Origin: a virus
Taxonomy: Duplodnaviria > Caudoviricetes
Virus record (IMG/VR): IMGVR_UViG_3300028572_000013
Coordinates: 1-60,169 of that record
Direction: 5' to 3' (one strand)
DNA length: 60,169 nt
Each line of letters opens with the position of its first letter. Position 1 is the stretch's first letter. The position numbers and the translations under genes are program-made. The notes below the pieces were generated by a model, which had not been told where the DNA came from, did not search any database, and saw nothing but the letters and a program-made list of their open reading frames with translations. This document shows positions 33,570 to 60,169 of this stretch, piece after piece.

Positions 33570-34574
33570 ATGAAAGTCGAAACGATCGCAGCCCCTTCTA
33601 TTACACAACCAACTGGTGCAAAGTCCATAGCGCAAGTCAGTGCCCGAGATAGAGCTATACAGATGCTAACAGCGCAACAGTCACAGCAAGCTCCCGTTCA
33701 AAACCCAACAAATGTAGCACCGGAAGAAATGTCCGCTATTGTGCCTAAACAACAAGATTCCGGTCAATCCGCTAAAGATGAGAGCCAAGTTCCTGTTGCT
33801 AACGAAGCATCAAAAGCACCAGAAGAACCGATTAGTTCTCAATACGCCGTTTTAGCGCGTAAAGATAAGGCCTTACGTCTTAGGGATCAACAGCTAAAGC
33901 AGAAAGAAGCTGCTTTGCGTGCCCAAGAAGAGGCGTTAAAAGCTAAACCTGTCGCCCCCTCCATTGATGAATCCAAATATATCTCAAGAGATAATCTTCT
34001 AAAAGATCCAATTCGAACTCTTTTAGACATGGGATTAACCTATGATCAACTGACGGAAGCCGCCGTAAACGGTCCTAGTCAAGAGAATATGTCTCTTCAG
34101 AATGAATTAAGAGCAATGAGAGAAGAACTTAAAGCTCTAAAGGGTGAGACTGAGAGCACTAAGAAAAGCTTTGAAGAGAATCAGAACTTACAACGACAAC
34201 AAGCAGAAAAACAGATTAAGTCTGATGTCTCCAGATTAGTTCAATTAGATCCCAGCTTCGAGATGATTAAAGCAACCGGAAGTGTTGGAGATGTAGTGGA
34301 ATTGATTACGAAAACCTTTGATGAGGACGGAATTCTTTTGACCGTTGAGGATGCCGCCGCTCAAGTTGAAGAGTATCTTGCTGAGGAAGCTATTAAACTC
34401 GCAAGACTTAACAAAATTCAACAGAAATTGCAACCTAAAGTTGCTCAACAGACGCTAACGAGTCAAACTCAGCAGCAACAAGTGAAAACCTTGACGTCTA
34501 ATATGACTAACTCGAGACCTTTAAGTGCTAGGGATCGAGCTATATTAGCCGCTGAAGGAAAATTAAACAAGTAA
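33570..34574 (+). CDS. Capsid scaffolding protein
   Basis: Coiled-coil, Q/E-rich, directly before capsid gene; SARDRAI at both ends. Confidence 0.7.
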   Translation: MKVETIAAPSITQPTGAKSIAQVSARDRAIQMLTAQQSQQAPVQNPTNVAPEEMSAIVPKQQDSGQSAKDESQVPVANEASKAPEEPISSQYAVLARKDKALRLRDQQLKQKEAALRAQEEALKAKPVAPSIDESKYISRDNLLKDPIRTLLDMGLTYDQLTEAAVNGPSQENMSLQNELRAMREELKALKGETESTKKSFEENQNLQRQQAEKQIKSDVSRLVQLDPSFEMIKATGSVGDVVELITKTFDEDGILLTVEDAAAQVEEYLAEEAIKLARLNKIQQKLQPKVAQQTLTSQTQQQQVKTLTSNMTNSRPLSARDRAILAAEGKLNK

Positions 34575-34689
34575 TCGATAGCTTAAACTTACTGCAGCAT
34601 GGTGTTACGGTAAGGTATAAACTATCAAAAACTGACCTAGGATCATGACGTTCTAACCAATGTTATAACCAACGTCTAAAGGAAATAAA

Positions 34690-37600
34690 ATGTCCGCAAT
34701 ATATGCAAATTCAAGTAACCAAATTGCAGCTTAAACTTAAATATTGATATAATTAAAATAAAGTGGTACATTAAATTATGTTTAGTGATAAACCCATGAT
34801 CATATATTTCGTAACTTTAAACAACGAAATAGTTTATATAGGACAAACCAAGCTCACACTAGGCAAGCGTCGTTCTCAACATGAGTATAACGCACGTCGG
34901 GGTAAAGGTTATGTAATAGGCTCTGCTATAAGAAAGCATGGAGCAGATAAATTTTCTTGGAATACGCACAGCGTTTATTATAACCAAGTCGATTTAGACG
35001 AAGCTGAAAAGCACTACATAACAAAATACAAACCTAAGTATAACATAAACTTAGGAGGAGAATCTAGGGGAATTCGTAAAAAAGACGGATTAAAACCTTG
35101 GAATAAAGGTCAAAAAGGACTACAAGTTGCCTGGAATAAAGGCCGCAAAGAGACTAGACCGGAAGTTTTAGAAAAGATTAAATCCTCAGCAGTTGCTAGG
35201 GATAATTCTTCTAGAACTATAACTCCTGAACATAGAGCTAAGCTCGTTAAAGGGCGACGATCGGCATACGAAGACGTTGCAAGGCCTTTTAAATGTGAGC
35301 AAAACGGTAAAACCTATTTACTGGTCGTAGATGCCTCTAGGGATTTAAATATATCCGCAAACGGCATTTACGCAGTATTAAATCCAAACAGTAGGTTAAA
35401 ATCCTACAAAGGATTTACTTTTAATTATATACAGTCTTAGAGCTGTTTAAATTTTCTCTAATTGACTTGGAAGCCTAGAAGTAGGTGACAGGGCGGAAGG
35501 CTAAGGCCACCGTGAACGACTAAATGAGAAGACAACGTAAATGTTGATGTGATAGTCTGAACACTGGCATAACAAAAGAAACCAGTGAAGTGGGGGTTAA
35601 TAACCCACGATAACAAATTGTAAAAGAGTTGTATACCGATAGTAATGAATACATGAAGGATTAACACTAGGTCCTTCTAAAACCAACCAATATCGGGGGA
35701 CGCTGAAACGCCAATCCCGAGGTAAAGCAGGGAGTAAAGGTCCTGGCTCACCGTAACGCGTAGTACTTGACACTCTCATAAAAACATGAGAGACTAAAAT
35801 AGTACCAAGAGTGGTAGGCAATCTAGATACTAGATTGATAATGTACGCTGAACTAATATGAAGACATGTAAACGAAAAGACTGCACAGAAAACAACCCGC
35901 AGCCTAAACAAAACTTTGTTAAGGATAGTCGATATGCAGACGGGTACCAAAATATGTGCAAATCTTGTCAGAAAAAATATAACTCAGCCAGGTTTGATCG
36001 AAACCGAGCTAAGATTCTTTTACAGTCCAAGACTTATTACAGTTCTACTATAGACGCCTCTCGAAAAAAGAGGGCAGAGTATAGAGCTACTCATAAAGCG
36101 TTGCAAAAACAACTAGAGGCTGACTGGAGAAAGAAAAACCCAGGCAGATCCCGCGAAAAAGTTCGACGGTATCAAGCTAAAAAGTTAAATGCAACACCTA
36201 AGTGGTTGACTGAAAAGCAAGTACGAGAAATCCAAGCGTTCTACGAAAACTGTCCAATTGGGCATGAGGTAGACCATATACTCCCCTTACAAGGGGTTAG
36301 CGTCTCTGGGTTTCACGTTCTAAACAACTTACAGTACTTGCCCAGATCAGAAAATCGTAAAAAGTCAAACAAATATTAGAAGTTGAGATAAAAAGCTCAA
36401 CGATAACATTAAGTTAGTTTACAAAGAAAATCCTTTCTTGGCATTAGTGCCCAAACTGGAATCTCCAGACGGTTTCGCTGGTAAGTACATTCCAGTGCCT
36501 ATCGAATTCGGCGTACCAGCCGGACGATCACACTCGTTCTCTAATGCGCAAAACCAACAGACAGCAGCTCAACTGGCTTCTTTCTTCGTGTATGTGATTT
36601 CAGACTATCAGTTGGTAACTATTACGAACCTCCTTAACTCCATGGGGACCTGCTAGAGTAATCTAGCTTGCAAATCGATCAAATTCGGTGAAAGCTGAAA
36701 CGCTAATACCGAGCTAAATGCAGAGGATAAAGAATCTGCATCAGTGTAGAGCATAGTGCTTGATCCTAGGGCCAAAATGGACTAGACTAAAATAGCACCA
36801 CGAGTGATCGACATCCGAGAAGTAAATCTGAAAGGATGATAAGATATGCCGACCTTAACTAAAGTATGTACTCTTTGTAAAGTAGAAAAGCTAGAAATAG
36901 AATTTTACCCAAATGGATACACACAGAACGATGGCAGCAAAAGTTAAGAAGTAGAGGATAAAAAGCCTCTACGATAACAGCTCCGCATGGAGCAAACCAA
37001 ATCAAATGCGGGTAGAATGTGCCCCCTAGCAGCGTAAGCTGTTAGAGAAAACTGACCAATATCGGTGAAGGCTGAAATGCTAATACCGAGATAAGCTAAG
37101 TAACTAAAAAGATTTAGCCATCGTAACGATTAGTACTTGAAAACTGATGAAAATCAGAATAAAATAGTACCACGAGTGGTCGGCATCCCAAAGGGATGAA
37201 AATTTAATCTGGACTTATATGAAGACTTGTAGAGACTGTAAAATAACTAAAGAGAAAAAAGAATTTAGTATTAGACAGCCGATATGTAAACCATGTCGCT
37301 CAAAAGTGATGGCACAAAGATACTTAGACAACAAAGAGCATCACAATAAAAAGAGCAAAGCATGGTATCAAGCTAACAAGTCGATAGTAAGCATTAAAGG
37401 AAAAGCAGCTCGAGCCTCAAACAGAGAGAGTATAAATCTGAAGAGAAGGCTTAAGAAATACGGAATTACACTAGAACAGTATAATCAAAAACTAGTGGAA
37501 AACAATAATTCCTGTGAAATCTGCAAAAAACCCTTTACTGAAACGCCTGCCATTGATCATGATCACACGACTGGACAATTTAGAAGTCTACTCTGTGATA

Positions 37601-38669
37601 ACGATAATACGGCGCTGGGTTTGATGAAAGAGAATTTAGCAACTCTGGAGTCAAGCATGTCTTACCTAAAGAAATATAAGAAGTAGAGGATAAAGAGCCT
37701 CTACGATAACAGTCAACGGCATTTGTTGATGCAGCTAAACTGCAAATGGACGGTGGATTCAGAATGATCACCAACAACATCGCTTTCGAATTGTTCGGTG
37801 ATGGGTCTGCTACACGAGGTTTCATTGGCTCTACAGTGTCTTCATCTGCTCCTACTTACGTTATTACGCTGTCGAATGCTCAACAGATCGTTCAGTTTGA
37901 AGTTGGAATGACCCTAGTGAACTTCGCCATCAGTGCAGGACTTATCTCTAGCATCAGCAGCAGCACTGCTTCAATCACAGCAGTTGATAGAACTAACGGA
38001 ATTATCACCGTTCTTGCTTCTGCTACTGACGCTTCATGGGCTTCCGCAGGACACGGACTCGGAGTATACGGGGACATCGTTGCAGGACCAGTCAGCACCG
38101 GAACGAACCTTGCATTATCCGGATTGGCCGCATGGCTTCCAGCTTCTGCTCCTAGCAGCTCTGATAGCTTCTGGGGTGTGAACCGATCTGCAGACGTAAC
38201 CCGTCTTGCTGGTATTCGATACAATGCTCAATCATTGACTATTGAAGAAGGTATCACCAACGCTCTTGCAGTGTTAAACCGAGAAGGTGGAAAACCCGAC
38301 CTTTGTATCATGGACTTCGCTTCTTTCGCAGCTCTTGTGAACAGCTTAGGGGCTAAAGTTCAGTACGTTCAAGTAAAACATGATGAAGTTGAAGTAGCTT
38401 TCGAAGGGATCACCTTTCAATCTGCTTACGGCCGAGTCACTGTATTAGCTGACCGTTCATGTCCTCCTCAGACCGCTTACCTCTTAACGATGTCAACTTT
38501 CAAGTTGAGATCTTTAGGAAAAGTACCTCACATCCTCACTTATGGGATGGAGGGCTTGGAGGGGTTGAGAGTGGGAAATGCTGACGCCCTCGAAATACGA
38601 ATTGGCTATTATGGCAATTTAATTTGTAGCGCCCCAGGATGGAACGCAGTCGTTCAATTGTCTGCATAA
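34690..38669 (+). CDS. Major capsid protein split by four group I introns: join(34690..34732,35621..35661,36414..36634,36986..37013,37719..38669), 427 aa
   Basis: Spliced frame is open: MSAIYANSSNQIAALKELYTDSNEYMKDLVYKENPFLALVPK...TNLLMEQTKSNAGAFVDAAKLQMDGG...YYGNLICSAPGWNAVVQLSA; AAGGA RBS; follows scaffold; terminator downstream. Confidence 0.88.
34733..35620 (+). mobile_element. Group I intron 1 (888 nt), GIY-YIG ORF in the P1 loop
   Basis: Exon GCAGCUU pairs with IGS GAGCUGU 35440-35446 (U.G at splice site); P7 GACUA 35518/UAGUC 35553; terminal G 35620. Confidence 0.85.
34778..35440 (+). CDS. Intron-encoded GIY-YIG homing endonuclease
   Basis: IIY...YIGQT..R; E..YI; YNI; PWNKG repeats; own TTGATA-17-TACATT promoter. 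Confidence 0.88.
   Translation: MFSDKPMIIYFVTLNNEIVYIGQTKLTLGKRRSQHEYNARRGKGYVIGSAIRKHGADKFSWNTHSVYYNQVDLDEAEKHYITKYKPKYNINLGGESRGIRKKDGLKPWNKGQKGLQVAWNKGRKETRPEVLEKIKSSAVARDNSSRTITPEHRAKLVKGRRSAYEDVARPFKCEQNGKTYLLVVDASRDLNISANGIYAVLNPNSRLKSYKGFTFNYIQS
35662..36413 (+). mobile_element. Group I intron 2 (752 nt), HNH ORF in the P9 region
   Basis: P1 GAAGGAU/GUCCUUC; P10 ACUAG/UUAGU; P7 GCGUA 35758/UACGC 35844; terminal G 36413. Confidence 0.88.
35858..36379 (+). CDS. Intron-encoded HNH homing endonuclease
   Basis: N-terminal Cys finger; ATPKWL; HEVDHILPLQG..VSGFHV..NLQ..EN..KSN. Confidence 0.88.
   Translation: MKTCKRKDCTENNPQPKQNFVKDSRYADGYQNMCKSCQKKYNSARFDRNRAKILLQSKTYYSSTIDASRKKRAEYRATHKALQKQLEADWRKKNPGRSREKVRRYQAKKLNATPKWLTEKQVREIQAFYENCPIGHEVDHILPLQGVSVSGFHVLNNLQYLPRSENRKKSNKY
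36635..36985 (+). mobile_element. Group I intron 3 (351 nt), endonuclease remnant only
   Basis: P1 UCCU/GGGA; perfect P10 CUCCAUG/CAUGGAG; P7 GCAUA 36751/UAUGC 36845; terminal G 36985. Confidence 0.88.
36846..36947 (+). pseudogene. Truncated homing endonuclease remnant (33 aa)
   Basis: MPTLTKVCTLCKVEKLEIEFY.. resembles the N-terminus of the intron 4 ORF; same P9 position. Confidence 0.7.
37014..37718 (+). mobile_element. Group I intron 4 (705 nt), EndoVII-type ORF in the P9 region
   Basis: P1 GGGU/GCCC; P10 GAAUGU/GCAUUU; P7 GAUUA 37128/UAAUC 37205; terminal G 37718. Confidence 0.88.
37219..37686 (+). CDS. Intron-encoded endonuclease VII-type HNH nuclease
   Basis: KYGITLEQY..CEIC..IDHDHTTGQFRSLLCDNDNTALG. 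Confidence 0.88.
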   Translation: MKTCRDCKITKEKKEFSIRQPICKPCRSKVMAQRYLDNKEHHNKKSKAWYQANKSIVSIKGKAARASNRESINLKRRLKKYGITLEQYNQKLVENNNSCEICKKPFTETPAIDHDHTTGQFRSLLCDNDNTALGLMKENLATLESSMSYLKKYKK

Positions 38670-38703
38670 TCATATAGTTAGATAAACTTTTTAAGTAAAG
38701 TTA

Positions 38704-38734
38704 GAGCCCTAGATCAAAAGTCTAGGGCTTTTTT
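38704..38734 (+). terminator. Rho-independent terminator after capsid gene
   Basis: AGCCCTAGA/TCTAGGGCT plus T-tract. Confidence 0.85.
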
Positions 38735-38824
38735 AGAACTTATAATTTACACGTGGAATGGAAACACGTGCCAAAAATAATATTTGACAAATTTTTATAA
38801 TTTGATATTATATATTTAAGGAGT

Positions 38825-39427
38825 TTGAAAATGATTATTTATAAAATTACTAATAAAATAAATGGCAAGATCTACATAGGACAAACTGTTCAACAACTCA
38901 TGGACAGATGGAGCGATCACTCTAGACCAAGTTTAGGTAAACATATGAATCGATCGGCTATAGCGTCTGCCATTAGATTACACGGCAAAGAGAATTTCAC
39001 AGTCGAACAGATTGATTCGGCGGGAACCCTAGAAGCATTGAATATCTTGGAAATTCACTATATACAAAAATTCAATACACTCTCTCCGAATGGTTACAAT
39101 CTAGAACTAGGAGGCGATAGTAAGCGATGTCACGAAGAAACAAAAGCTAAAATCAGCGCTACTCTAAAAGGAAGACCCTTTATCAATCGCATGAACGGAG
39201 CTCCCAAAGGACGCCCAGTATCGGCCGAACGCCGGGCTCAAATTAGCGCCACCATGACTGGACAAGCGCAGCCTTGGAAGTATAAAGCCGTTATAGACTC
39301 CAATGGTGTCATTTATGAGTCTGTAAATGCTGCAGCCAAAGCTAACAAAATTAACCGAGTCACGGTGTCCCAAGCACTAAAATCGGGAAAACCAACAAGA
39401 TCAGGCTTAAGCTTTAAATTCATATAA
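38825..39427 (+). CDS. Free-standing GIY-YIG endonuclease with NUMOD-like C-terminal repeats
   Basis: IIYKITNKINGKIYIGQT..R; PNGYN; EETKAKIS; YESVNAAAK. Confidence 0.9.
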   Translation: MKMIIYKITNKINGKIYIGQTVQQLMDRWSDHSRPSLGKHMNRSAIASAIRLHGKENFTVEQIDSAGTLEALNILEIHYIQKFNTLSPNGYNLELGGDSKRCHEETKAKISATLKGRPFINRMNGAPKGRPVSAERRAQISATMTGQAQPWKYKAVIDSNGVIYESVNAAAKANKINRVTVSQALKSGKPTRSGLSFKFI

Positions 39428-39629
39428 GCTTGTAAAGACTTGTAAAGTTATACCCGCTAGGTATCCCTGTCCCCGAAACTGCATCCAATTATACCCGATT
39501 GCATCTGTTTTCATTGGTTTGTTACCGGTATAGTAACAAAACTCCAAACTTAAATGCAGAGATAAGTAAAACTACCGAGTTGTTGACTCTATACAAAATC
39601 GGTAGTATTATGTATTCATGGAGGACGGT

Positions 39630-39836
39630 ATGAAGTCATACATTATAGCTAGTGGTATAAGCAAAGGTGATGTGTCTAGACCAGATTGGGAATGGCAAAC
39701 TATTGATTTATTAGGTTTTATTAGTGAAAAGCTTCAAGAAGATAGATTAACAACTAAGAAAGAAGCACGTTATAGACTTAAATTTCATCAGATTGTTCAA
39801 GCGGCATTGAAACAACACAAGAAAGATGCGGCTTAA
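39630..39836 (+). CDS. Hypothetical protein
   Basis: TTGACT-17-TATTAT promoter; GGAGG before ATG 39630. Confidence 0.6.
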   Translation: MKSYIIASGISKGDVSRPDWEWQTIDLLGFISEKLQEDRLTTKKEARYRLKFHQIVQAALKQHKKDAA

Positions 39837-56918: not shown

Positions 56919-59843
56919 ATGGCGCTATCATTTAATTTTAATCCATTCACAGGTAACTTTGATCAGATTAGTACAGTAACTATTAATGCTACAGCAAATG
57001 GTTTAAGTATTGATGCAAATCAAGTACTCTCTTTAGGACTCTCTTCAACTTCTACAACCGGTGCGTTAAGCTCTACTGACTGGAATACTTTCAACACAGC
57101 TGCTTCTTCAGTAACATCAGCTACGTCTGCAAATACTCCTAATACTATTGTTAAAAGAGATGCTTCTGGTAATTTTGCTGCTAGTACTTTAACTATCTCA
57201 GGTGCAGATACAATAGCTTCCGGAACTATGGCTATTGGTACAGTTAATGCGAGCATTATTAATATCGGACGAAGTGGTGCAACTGTTAATATCCAAGGTA
57301 CTACAATATTTGAAAATAGTACGACGTTAAATGTTTCAAATCCTGTTATTAATGTCAATACAGCCGGCGGTGTCGGCTCCGGATCTAGTTCTGGTATTAA
57401 CATTGAAGAAAATTCTATAGCAACTGGATATGCTTTAACTTCTGGAGATCGTAATAGTTGGCAGTTTAAAGCACCAAATACAGCTGGACTAGCAACCATA
57501 ACTCCAGGAACAAGCGGCATTACGTTAGCTGGTAGTATCACTAGCGGTACAAACTCTGGTAATAATACTGGGGATGTCACATTATCTACAGCAAATGGGT
57601 TAAGTTTATCAGGTCAAGCCTTGAGTTTAGCTCTATCGTCATCGTCTACGACAGGCGCTCTCAGCTCTACTGATTGGTCAACGTTTAATAGTAAACAAGC
57701 ATCAGGAAACTATATAACGGCTTTAACCGGAGATGCCACTGCTTCCGGGCCTGGAAGTGCTGCTTTAACTCTCGCAACAGTTAACTCCAATGTTGGAACA
57801 TTTGCGTCTGTAACGGTAAATGGAAAAGGTTTAGTAACTGCTGCAGCTGCATTGAGCGGAGATGCAACTACTTCGGGTTCTGCCCTAACATTAGCAACAG
57901 TTAACTCCAATGTTGGTAGTTTTACTAATGCGAACATAACGGTCAACGCAAAGGGATTAATTACCGCCGCATCCAGTGGTACAAACGGAACCGTCACTAG
58001 CTTTGCCTTCACTAATCAAGACAACGTAACTGGGACCGTAACAAATTCCACCACCACCCCAACACTTGCATTAGCGCCAACAAGCTCCACTCCTGCAGCT
58101 TCTAGTTTTGCTTCTTGGGACGCCAACAAAAATTTACAAGCTAATAATTTAATTGAAGGGTACACTACGACTGTGACGGCAGCAGGAACTACCACATTAG
58201 TAGTTGGTAGTACATATCAACAATATTTCACAGGAACGTCAACACAAACAGTGGTATTGCCTGTAACCTCAACCCTAGTCTTAGGTCAACAATTCCAGAT
58301 TATAAATAATAGTACAGGAACTGTAACTGTTGAATCAAGCGGTAGTAACGTTATACAAGTGATGTCGGCTAACACACAGTTGACAGTAACAGTAATTTCT
58401 ACATCTTTAACGACTGCTGCTGCGTGGAATGCTGTATATGTATCAGGAATTGCAGCAGTTATAAACCCCACAATTCAAAAATTCACATCAGGTTCTGGAA
58501 CATACACAACCCCCGCGGGTGTACAATACATTCTCGTTAGAATGGTCGGAGGCGGCGGAGGCGGAGCTGGTGGCGGAAATTCAGGCGGCGGTTCATCCGG
58601 AGGAAACGGTGGAGCGTCGACATTTGGTTCATCGTTGTTATCCGCAGGTGGTGGTACCGGAGGCGCGTTTGGTGGTGGTACCGGAGGCGCCGGTGGTACC
58701 TCAAGCTTAGGTTCTGGACCTTTAGGAACTGCCTTAACCGGTGGACAAGGTGGACCATCGATGTACACCGGCACCGCCGCGTACCAAACAGGCGGCAACG
58801 GCGGTAATACAGCATTTGGAGGTGGTGCAGCTGGTGGTTATGCAAACTCGGGGGGTCTTGCGGGGTCAGCAAACACAGGTGGCGGCGGTGGTGGTGGTGG
58901 CACAGGATCCGCCACTATCCCTGCAGGCGCTGGCGGCGGTGGCGGCGGTTACGTGGACGCCATTATTACCTCACCTACAGCGACATACAGTTATGCCGTT
59001 GGAACTGGAGGAACGGCTGGATCGGCAGGTACCAACGCGGCTGTCGGAGGAGTCGGTGCTGCAGGTTATATTGAAGTCACAGAATATTATACTAATTATC
59101 AAGTTAGTACAACTACTTCAGTTGCAGCAGGCACGTTCTTAGCAGGACCAACAAGTGGTAGTAATGGAAATCCGACCTTTAGAGCTTTACAGGCTCCGAC
59201 ACAGCAAAGATTCACATCTGGATCTGGAACTTATACGACTCCAGCTGGAGCTTTATATCTTCGAGTTAGAATGGCTGGAGCAGGTGGCGGTGGTTGTGGA
59301 TATAATACCTCAGGTGGAGCTGCAGGAAGTGGCGGAGCTGCCAGTGGAAATACAACTTTTGGAACTTCTCTTTTAATCGCTACAAGCGGTGCCCCTGGCA
59401 CCTCAAGTGGAGCAAATAATACGACTGGCGGTGTTGGTGGAGGCACGACGGTTAACTCTCCTGCTATTGCCATTGTTTCACAAACCGGTGGATCTGGTGG
59501 ACCTGGAAACTATTGCGCAACAACGGTTACCACGACTTATGGCGCTCCGGGTGGCACGAATCCATTTGGTGGTGGAGGAATGGGCGGAAGCGGATCTGGG
59601 ATCGCGACTGCTCCTATAGCCAATACTGGTGCAGGCGGATCAGGTGGTGGTGCTAACGGCAGCTCTTCTGGTGTTACCTCAGGTTCTAGCGGTGGAGCGG
59701 GTGGTTATATTGAAGCGTTTATATATAATCCATCTTCAACTTATGCATATTCTGTTCCAACTGGTGGAGCGGCTGGATCCTCTTCCGGAAGTGGAACGGC
59801 TGGAGCTTCCGGCATTATCATTGTTGAGGAACATTATCAATAA
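56919..59843 (+). CDS. Long tail fibre/receptor-binding protein with two glycine-rich domains
   Basis: FNPFTGNFD N-terminus; repeated GALSSTDW and TLATVNSNVG..TVNxKGL; two FTSGSGTYTTPAG-initiated Gly-rich domains. Confidence 0.8.
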   Translation: MALSFNFNPFTGNFDQISTVTINATANGLSIDANQVLSLGLSSTSTTGALSSTDWNTFNTAASSVTSATSANTPNTIVKRDASGNFAASTLTISGADTIASGTMAIGTVNASIINIGRSGATVNIQGTTIFENSTTLNVSNPVINVNTAGGVGSGSSSGINIEENSIATGYALTSGDRNSWQFKAPNTAGLATITPGTSGITLAGSITSGTNSGNNTGDVTLSTANGLSLSGQALSLALSSSSTTGALSSTDWSTFNSKQASGNYITALTGDATASGPGSAALTLATVNSNVGTFASVTVNGKGLVTAAAALSGDATTSGSALTLATVNSNVGSFTNANITVNAKGLITAASSGTNGTVTSFAFTNQDNVTGTVTNSTTTPTLALAPTSSTPAASSFASWDANKNLQANNLIEGYTTTVTAAGTTTLVVGSTYQQYFTGTSTQTVVLPVTSTLVLGQQFQIINNSTGTVTVESSGSNVIQVMSANTQLTVTVISTSLTTAAAWNAVYVSGIAAVINPTIQKFTSGSGTYTTPAGVQYILVRMVGGGGGGAGGGNSGGGSSGGNGGASTFGSSLLSAGGGTGGAFGGGTGGAGGTSSLGSGPLGTALTGGQGGPSMYTGTAAYQTGGNGGNTAFGGGAAGGYANSGGLAGSANTGGGGGGGGTGSATIPAGAGGGGGGYVDAIITSPTATYSYAVGTGGTAGSAGTNAAVGGVGAAGYIEVTEYYTNYQVSTTTSVAAGTFLAGPTSGSNGNPTFRALQAPTQQRFTSGSGTYTTPAGALYLRVRMAGAGGGGCGYNTSGGAAGSGGAASGNTTFGTSLLIATSGAPGTSSGANNTTGGVGGGTTVNSPAIAIVSQTGGSGGPGNYCATTVTTTYGAPGGTNPFGGGGMGGSGSGIATAPIANTGAGGSGGGANGSSSGVTSGSSGGAGGYIEAFIYNPSSTYAYSVPTGGAAGSSSGSGTAGASGIIIVEEHYQ

Positions 59844-60169
59844 TTTTAAATAGTTGGGAATAAATATGTCAATTTTAATAGCATTTTTAGTAAGTAAATT
59901 TCAATCGTTGATCTTTAAAGCTCAACCAGCAATCTCTGTAATCTCACCATTTGTATCGAAGATTATCTCTATAGCCCCCTTACCAGTTGGTATTCTGATT
60001 GGTTATATCTTTCACGCAGAGATTAAGATTGCATTCGAAGCTATTCACGCTTTAATAAAACTAATTTCATTAATTTAAGGAGAAAACATGAAGAACGTAA
60101 GCTGCAATGTATTAAGTGCATCAGATGCTACAAGTCAAAATGGAGCTCAGATTGATTCAAATCAACTCG
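59844..60169 (+). repeat. Terminal redundancy with 954-1279 (circular overlap)
   Basis: Offset 58,890; 4 SNPs, last 127 nt identical. Confidence 0.93.
59866..60078 (+). CDS. Small membrane protein (copy of 976..1188)
   Basis: One amino-acid difference (I/V). Confidence 0.65.
   Translation: MSILIAFLVSKFQSLIFKAQPAISVISPFVSKIISIAPLPVGILIGYIFHAEIKIAFEAIHALIKLISLI

Follow-up and report, generated by a model that had tools for sequence, protein, structure and literature searches.

Introns have been reported in the major capsid genes of mycobacteriophage LittleE and lactococcal phage Tuc2009 (PMC3706429). Here we describe the major capsid gene at positions 34690 to 38669 (plus strand) of a 60,169-nucleotide (nt) stretch, IMG/VR virus record IMGVR_UViG_3300028572_000013, which is the genome of an uncultured tailed phage from peat; this whole stretch is referred to below as the window. 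The gene very probably consists of five exons separated by four mobile group I introns and is spliced to encode a protein of 427 amino acids (aa). The LittleE and Tuc2009 genes resemble it in that an intron with an HNH endonuclease gene lies within the major capsid gene and follows the U ... G rule, but they have one intron per gene and no micro-exons (PMC3706429). Splicing was efficient according to reverse transcription-PCR and protein N-terminal sequencing, and the type of the LittleE intron was called unclear, "most likely a group I" (PMC3706429).

Genes with several introns have also been described. The DNA polymerase and large terminase genes of the Bastillevirinae are, like the capsid gene of the window, multi-intron genes with mostly IA-like introns that carry a nuclease open reading frame (ORF) in a loop; unlike the window, they have two or three introns per gene among the cases described, belong to cultured Bacillus phages, and come from a study in which the word "capsid" does not occur (PMC11878797). 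Their detection needed subgroup-specific models, and in 10 instances a signature of the ribozyme was seen on just one side of the ORF loop (PMC11878797). The major capsid gene of Faustovirus E12 is likewise split by many introns, with splicing seen by RNA-seq (13 exons spread across 17 kb, with 5 group I introns and 7 of other kinds), but it belongs to a giant amoeba virus of a different capsid fold lineage and contains mixed intron types (PMC6247863). The PhiPA3 intron endonuclease gp210 acts in competition between co-infecting phages, in this case in a nucleus-forming jumbo phage with one intron (PMC11620839). A precedent for regulation by splicing is the light-dependent splicing of the S-PM2 psbA intron (PMC5931967).

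A phage gene with four group I introns was not among the results of our literature search (Creative Commons-licensed PMC full texts and bioRxiv, with supplementary tables outside its scope), nor was any account of this peat phage group. Landthaler and Shub are said to have described, in 1999, three self-splicing group I introns in Twort orf142, for which exon skipping was reportedly observed as well; that gene has three introns rather than four and differs from the present one in identity and host. The novelty assigned to the locus in a first-pass annotation, which was made by a model from the sequence, was therefore overstated with regard to capsid-gene introns (PMC3706429) and to phage genes with two or three introns (PMC11878797), both of which were already published, while a gene with four was not found. 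The locus is notable for its intron count, its micro-exons, and its RNA support, and although extreme it can be recognised as one of a known kind of selfish RNA element.

The interrupted capsid gene and its introns

In the list of ORFs translated with table 11, the locus appears as a 307-aa capsid ORF without its N-terminal part (37746-38669), a 72-aa fragment (36438-36656), and three nuclease ORFs in between, exactly as the first-pass annotation had described it. That annotation proposed that excision of four segments leaves one open frame, and all of its coordinates hold. Exon 1 (34690..34732; 43 nt) starts with an ATG at 34690 that is preceded by AAGGA, and it is followed by the 41-nt micro-exon 2 (35621..35661), exon 3 (36414..36634; 221 nt), which contains the 72-aa fragment, the 28-nt micro-exon 4 (36986..37013), and exon 5 (37719..38669; 951 nt including the stop codon). 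All lie on the plus strand, as do the introns and the other features of the locus described below. Joined, the five exons give 1284 nt, i.e., 427 codons and a single terminal stop. Two of the junctions fall inside codons, and the frame is restored at both, as had been claimed. Intron sequence makes up 2696 of the 3980 nt, in agreement with the earlier figure of 2.7 kb in a 4-kb locus.

Exon 5 identifies the gene. Its coding part (37719-38666) matches the Pfam family SU10_MCP (PF17236) at 26.1 bits (cut-off, 24.1), and it also matches two PHROG "major head protein" families (9953 and 14242). Used as a query, it retrieved 2710 proteins at an E value of ≤0.001 among the 8000 candidates scored. 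Among the 120 of these homologs that were listed, 88 have at least 420 aa (mostly 425 to 431 aa) and 32 are shortened gene calls, of which 7 begin at the first residue 3' of the intron-3 site. Among the intron-less homologs is P0003, which has 427 aa and shares 95% identity with exon 5. Exons 1, 2, 3, and 5 are colinear on P0003 by tblastn, and the 9-aa product of exon 4 is identical to the corresponding part of P0003 in the junction search described below. The alignment to intron-less capsid homologs that had been suggested as a check is thus colinear across the junctions, both for P0003 and in view of the many uninterrupted 427-aa homologs. No match to P0003 was found by tblastn in 50,697 GenBank phage records, and a sequence search of the PDB with the capsid profile gave 0 matches. 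An AlphaFold2 model of P0003, computed from a 10-row alignment, had a mean predicted local distance difference test score of 39.4 and was too poor for a fold search that could bear on an HK97-like fold.

The exon-intron boundaries were examined by scoring all frame-keeping boundary pairs for the best fit to P0003. This search left one to three ties per junction, and at all four junctions only one tie combined a T at position -1 with a terminal G; in each case it was the boundary given by the first-pass annotation. A T before the insertion and a G as its last base are accordingly common to the four introns. In each of them P1 is closed by a U.G pair (6, 7, 4, and 4 bp for introns 1 to 4), and a P10 strand lies directly 5' of the P1 guide (3, 4, 6, and 6 bp). 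All four also have a 5-bp P7 (GACTA/TAGTC, GCGTA/TACGC, GCATA/TATGC, and GATTA/TAATC), with the outer positions fixed and the two inner pairs covarying. Helix location thus bore out what had been read by eye, namely, a U.G-closed P1, a P7 pair, and a terminal G in each segment, together with a P10 that is clear for introns 2 to 4 and short for intron 1.

The remaining helices are those of a group I core. Each of the four introns has P3, P4, P6, P7, and P8 in canonical order and a pseudoknot made by the interleaving of P3 and P7. P1, P3 to P9.1, P10, and P9.0 were located across the introns, and the listed pairs are all standard except for one A-A pair in P3 of intron 2. P5 was located by script in introns 1, 3, and 4 and only by eye in intron 2, and P2 hairpins were located in introns 3 and 4 only. 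The 3' ends of all four introns share one arrangement, in which P9 is followed by a terminal hairpin, the common motif ACGATAACA, and then 4 to 7 bases ending in G.

The four introns fall into two families. Intron 1 (34733..35620; 888 nt) has a compact core without P7.1, in which the internal guide occupies 35437-35445, P3 to P9.1 occupy 35452-35608, and the final G is at 35620. Its guide comes right after the stop codon of a 220-aa GIY-YIG homing-endonuclease ORF (34778..35440), which places this ORF in the P1 loop. Introns 2 (35662..36413; 752 nt), 3 (36635..36985; 351 nt), and 4 (37014..37718; 705 nt) belong to a second family, in which a covarying P7.1 with a nested P7.1a follows the 5' strand of P7 and precedes the 3' strand of P3; intron 1 has no such insert. 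An extra P7.1/P7.2 or P7.1/P7.1a at this position is characteristic of subgroup IA introns. The insert of introns 2 to 4 would be of this type, with IA as a candidate subgroup name.

In the second family, the ORFs are situated in the P9 loop. The core of intron 2, from P1 to the 3' strand of P7, spans 35655-35848 and includes the P7.1/P7.1a insert; its P9 (35853-35859 with 36373-36379) closes the loop around a 173-aa HNH-like endonuclease ORF (35858..36379; PHROG 1035, "endonuclease VII"), and P9.1 (36382-36401) follows before the last base, a G. In intron 4, P9 (37214-37220 with 37674-37680) encloses a 155-aa endonuclease VII-type ORF (37219..37686; Pfam PF02945, Endonuclease_7). The P9 loop of intron 3 (36854-36859 with 36943-36948) contains a 33-aa ORF (36846..36947) that has no family match and was taken by eye as an endonuclease remnant.

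The exons themselves supply one strand of several of these helices. The 3'-most 6 nt of exon 1 form the 5' strand of the intron 1 P1. The first 3 nt of micro-exon 2 pair in the intron 1 P10 and its last 7 nt in the intron 2 P1; in micro-exon 4, bases 2 to 7 belong to the intron 3 P10 and the last 4 to the intron 4 P1. A possible 8-bp extension of the intron 1 P10 (35628-35635 with 35428-35435) was seen. When pairing of the micro-exons with their flanking introns beyond P1 and P10 was sought, only scattered 6- to 10-bp matches inside the ORFs were found.

Covariation was measured separately for the two families. In the alignment of the family of introns 2 to 4 (12 sequences, 5 insertion sites), 96.7% of 481 cells are paired, with slid controls at 23.6 to 41.1%, and both sides have changed in 28 of the 41 pairs. 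In the intron 1 family, with 5 sequences, paired cells make up 98.1% of 211 (slid controls, 32.9 to 46.4%) and both-side changes occur in 20 of 43 pairs. None of 500 shuffles matched any measure in either alignment.

A G+C-rich hairpin followed by a T run (38699..38735), which reads as terminator-like, lies 3' of the capsid stop codon. Just 3' of it is a free-standing 200-aa GIY-YIG endonuclease ORF (38825..39427) that is only distantly like the intron 1 enzyme (E value, 2e-8). A search of the window with its four endonuclease-like ORFs as queries placed all four at the capsid locus.

RNA contigs and competing explanations

Joined exons were found in RNA contigs from three metatranscriptome runs (X16, X17, and X18; three study codes, one year), compared at 90% likeness. 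The stretch is present in these runs only in part (0.27 to 0.40 of the sampled words). Three other RNA runs (X19 to X21) contain small shares and are outside the comparison. The joint 34732>35621 is exact in all three runs. The joint 35661>36414 is exact in X16, and a variant with two other letters ("CC") occurs in all three; 36634>36986 is exact in X17, with a variant carrying four other letters ("ATTG") in X16 and X17; and 37013>37719 is exact in X16 and X17, with 13 other letters in some contigs. In the one DNA run compared (X1), no joint was found at any junction, and the contigs continue through the introns. RNA contigs without differences from the window also occur within introns and over the border of exon 1 and intron 1. 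Gaps in the RNA contig cover of the introns carry no weight here, nor do contig depths as a ranking of exons and introns. In vivo splicing at the four junctions is well supported by these contigs; as only contigs and one DNA run could be compared, we regard it as well supported, not proven. The metatranscriptome check across the junctions proposed in the first-pass annotation thus produced exact joints at all four, for which intron-less relatives are an improbable source.

Several results weigh against the four-intron reading. The P1 helices of introns 3 and 4 have only 4 bp, and the intron 1 P10 has only 3 bp. With the generic Rfam group I model (RF00028; gathering score, 50 bits), there was no group I match at the gathering score anywhere in the window and none at an E value of ≤10 when the 5.3-kb locus (34400-39700) was searched whole; introns 1 and 2, searched alone, gave no match to the model either. 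The structures used for the covariation counts were drawn from the same sequences as those tested and are favoured over the slid controls for this reason. The RNA joints come from assembled contigs at 90% likeness with a shorter side of 23 to 40 letters and one DNA run for comparison, and several joined contigs carry other letters at junctions 2, 3, and 4. An RNA library may also contain DNA.

Some of these points are offset by other results. Searched alone, intron 3 (24.1 bits; E value, 3.5e-4) and intron 4 (29.6 bits; E value, 4.9e-6) match RF00028 over the full model length, below the gathering score, and the alignment of intron 3 to the model agrees with the located P1, P2, P3, P4, and P8 and with the stretch before the 3' strand of P7. 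A covariance-model scan had been named in the first-pass annotation as a way to check its proposal, and this test was passed, but weakly; the refuting outcome that it had named, a lack of such matches, applies to half of the introns. Despite the same-sequence bias, the many double changes would be hard to explain without the fold. The annotation's central claim, that the capsid gene is split by four group I introns leaving micro-exons of 41 and 28 nt, is borne out by the combination of colinearity with homologs, a covarying core, endonucleases in the loops, polymorphism among relatives, and joined RNA contigs.

Among the other explanations, the one that survives best accepts the introns as real and ascribes the joined RNA contigs to co-occurring intron-less relatives, so that splicing of the window's own transcript may be inefficient or may depend on host or phage proteins. 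Contigs with other letters at the junctions point to close relatives that may lack the intron concerned in their DNA; differences from the window occur at or close to junctions in several joined contigs, exon 5 has 10 other letters in one contig of 976 nt, and intron-less 427-aa alleles are present in DNA contigs. Joints below 95% likeness or with a side of <30 letters, moreover, often stem from other organisms. Against this source of the contigs stands the finding that each of the four junctions has exact joints, in which the two sides meet without any letters in between. Contigs with 0 differences from the window over 120 to 133 nt stop exactly at 34732 in X16 and X18, and X16 has both joined and unjoined continuations past this position. 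Among the DNA relatives fetched, finally, the nearest ones without introns reach only 63 to 88% identity with the joined coding sequence, and their bases next to junctions 1, 3, and 4 are different. We consider this explanation improbable.

A second explanation, a dead capsid gene in a defective phage into which free-standing endonuclease genes and other DNA have been inserted and from which nothing is spliced, would account for the nuclease ORFs between the capsid fragments and for the lack of an Rfam match at the gathering score. It is opposed by the form of the insertions, each of which is bounded by T and G, restores the frame, and has a covarying ribozyme core, and by the very existence of joined RNA contigs. 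Fifteen DNA runs labelled peat metagenome (15 study codes) also contain the stretch, at 0.97 to 0.99 of its sampled words; any of them may be its source sample, so that this presence is not independent support. The probability left to a dead gene is negligible. Hardly any weight, similarly, can be given to inteins, group II introns, or translational bypass, for which nothing speaks beyond the interruption of the gene: stop codons in the capsid frame and the two junctions inside codons show that the insertions are not inteins, there is no reverse-transcriptase ORF and no group II match in the window, and lengths of 351 to 888 nt are far above those of a translational hop (roughly 50 nt in phage T4 gene 60).

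The preferred reading, four group I introns spliced from the capsid transcript, implies the following course of events. The capsid gene would be transcribed as a precursor of ~4 kb containing all four introns, and the end of each upstream exon would pair with the internal guide to form P1, which has U.G where the cut is made. This site would be attacked by a free guanosine bound at P7, and the released exon end, kept in place by P1 and P10, would then attack behind the last G of the intron, by which the exons are joined; four such events would yield the 1284-nt frame and the 427-aa capsid protein. Two kinds of element would be involved, namely, intron 1, which is compact and whose P1 loop contains a GIY-YIG gene, and introns 2 to 4, three members of the second family with an HNH-like gene, a remnant, and an endonuclease VII-type gene in the P9 loop. 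Their endonucleases would cut intron-less capsid alleles of co-infecting relatives, and repair would copy the intron in (homing). The boundaries, the helices and their covariation, the ORF families, the polymorphism among relatives, and the joined RNA contigs are observed, and homing activity, autocatalysis, and any benefit to the phage are inferred; the existence of relatives without these introns, or with members of the same families at other sites, constitutes a presence/absence polymorphism.

If spliced in this way, the gene for the most abundant virion protein relies on four RNA-catalysed splicing events, two of them 28 nt apart. The locus would offer a natural system for studying the folding and action of several ribozymes on a single, heavily used late mRNA, the occurrence of exon skipping, and the coexistence of homing endonucleases with nearly overlapping target sites. 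Splicing might also time or limit capsid synthesis, as the first-pass annotation had speculated.

Some RNA contigs that are ~99% identical to the window in exon 5 show different synonymous letters just at junctions 2, 3, or 4, and the variant letters at junction 3 are those of a more distant intron-less locus (L002). Such a patchwork around intron sites could come from recombination or from co-conversion during homing.

Introns in related capsid loci and similar sequences in other phage genes

Relatives of the locus were taken from IMG/VR (80 of 179 loci found) and from further metagenomes (80 of 193 loci found), and the two sets overlap in part. The capsid gene is interrupted in 18 of the 80 IMG/VR loci, at other sites, and the metagenome set adds cases. 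Insertion sites in relatives lie after about codons 14, 26, 28, 31, 35, 37, 46, 50, 52, 54, and 55, with a few near the C terminus; those of the window are at codons 14, 28, 102, and 111. The number of full introns is highest in the window among the fetched loci. The interrupted loci (18 of 80), the shortened gene calls noted above (32 of 120 listed), and the failure of the generic Rfam model to find the introns at its gathering score and in a whole-locus search are of practical relevance for metagenome annotation.

Both intron families of the window recur in the capsid genes of relatives. A profile of the cores of introns 2 to 4 matches other loci at codons 26, 28, 37, 52, and 55. The cores of introns 2, 3, and 4 are 64 to 67% identical to each other, and each is 74 to 76% identical to an intron situated elsewhere in another locus; being closer to introns of other loci than to each other, they represent old lineages and not recent copies.

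Several of the related introns differ in construction from those of the window. A 203-nt group I intron of the intron 1 family at about codon 54 has no ORF (L069, 6195-6397; the same in L070, L154, and L157); it is among the shortest full introns seen here and has no Rfam match when searched alone. In three other loci (L071, 5236-6000; L155; L139), a core of the family of introns 2 to 4 is split into two parts (about profile positions 3 to 145 and 148 to 225) that lie ~500 nt apart, which indicates that the ORF occupies a different place in the ribozyme than in the window introns. Insertions of ~180 to 320 nt occur near the C-terminal end of the capsid gene, at about codons 387 to 414, in L145 (4680-4869), L097 (about 1486-1664), and L057 (7294-7609), and neither intron-family profile matches them. 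In L057, the last 30 codons are duplicated 317 nt past the gene.

Related sequences also occur in other phage genes. The intron 1 core matches five GenBank phage records at 71 to 78% identity. Parts of intron 3 match 58 records, mostly of Staphylococcus and Clostridium phages, none of which covers 80% of it. Staphylococcus phage VB-SauS-SA2 and other phages, including those of Staphylococcus, Clostridium, and Streptococcus, share with intron 3 the 3' hairpin and ACGATAACA at 87 to 97% and P3-P6 segments at 68 to 87%, but they differ in that only 10 to 50% of intron 3 is covered. In VB-SauS-SA2 (L081, 42831-45673), the large terminase is annotated as two coding sequences with a hypothetical ORF between them, and a core segment of the window intron family starts where the first terminase coding sequence ends. 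This interruption looks like an intron, and the listed feature rows of the record show none.

Putative mini-introns of relatives and genome context

A different kind of insertion was found in eight distinct capsid alleles of relatives, each of which carries a frame-breaking insertion of 32 to 57 nt after about codon 31, 35, or 46 (L025, 5961-6000; L068, 803-842; L050, 3279-3334; L077, 4538-4594; L076, 414-451; L069, 6103-6135; L136, 3472-3503; and L071, 5134-5173). Each of these insertions, which we call mini-introns, starts after a T and ends in G. In L025 and L069, a P1 strand of 8 nt, which has U.G at the cut site, comes directly after a P10 strand of 5 nt, an arrangement equalled by none of 20,000 shuffles. 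The guide of L071 is weaker (453 of 20,000 shuffles score as high), and those of the other five variants were read by eye. In six of the eight variants, the tail pairs over 10 to 11 bp with an exon stretch whose end lies 6 to 8 nt short of the 5' splice site of the following full intron (9 to 70 of 5000 shuffles reach this); the tail helices of L069 and L071 are not above chance. A MAFFT alignment of the mini-introns left the tails out of register and gave no pair count.

Mini-introns occur only where a full intron lies 27 to 66 nt downstream. The codon-46 insertion is accompanied by a full intron 27 nt downstream in 16 of 16 loci and is carried by 0 of 130 loci without a full intron there; many of these loci are duplicates, and the two features are closely linked. 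As 32 to 57 nt is too short for a core, the mini-introns are read as satellite introns that would be spliced by using the ribozyme core of their neighbour. Translational bypass was considered for them and rejected, as no matching take-off and landing codons were seen by eye. The window has no mini-introns of this kind. A scan of its whole length for mini-intron-like guides with loose thresholds was uninformative, with 62 matches on the plus strand and 88 on the minus strand and nothing distinct among them.

No phage mini-introns were found in the literature search. The nearest parallel consists of group I introns of 56 to 81 nt in fungal rRNA genes, which have P1, P7, P10, and a pairing of the intron with the 3' exon (PMC3160393). 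If spliced, the mini-introns would extend such "minimal" group I introns from fungal rRNA genes to protein-coding genes of phages, and they are a more novel lead than the introns of the window itself.

Taken together, these observations may be drawn into one tentative picture, which we think unlikely to hold in all its parts. The capsid gene of this phage clade might be a long-lived arena of group I introns, in which at least two families occupy ten or more sites in the first 111 codons and the endonucleases serve as weapons against co-infecting intron-less relatives, with which the varying letters next to the junctions in RNA contigs would be consistent. Crowding might make the introns interdependent; the 28-nt exon, which serves both the intron 3 P10 and the intron 4 P1, may require the introns to be spliced in order or cooperatively and may gate the output of capsid protein. 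The 32- to 57-nt satellites of relatives, reduced to a guide, a last G, and a tether helix, might be spliced by the neighbouring core.

Outside the capsid locus, the window has genes for helicases, for subunits of an SbcCD-like nuclease, and for a family A DNA polymerase, a large terminase, and a portal protein. The order of genes leading to the capsid is large terminase, portal, a 334-aa ORF without a family match, and capsid; by its position, the 334-aa ORF is a possible scaffold gene. Two direct repeats link the ends of the window, one of 300 nt at 98% identity (945-1244 and 59835-60134, 58,890 nt apart) and one at 78% identity (1-300 and 58031-58330, 58,030 nt apart). Gene content and end repeats together indicate a tailed phage genome of about 59 kb, and the repeats suggest a genome unit of ~59 kb that may have been assembled past its own start, with some strain variation.

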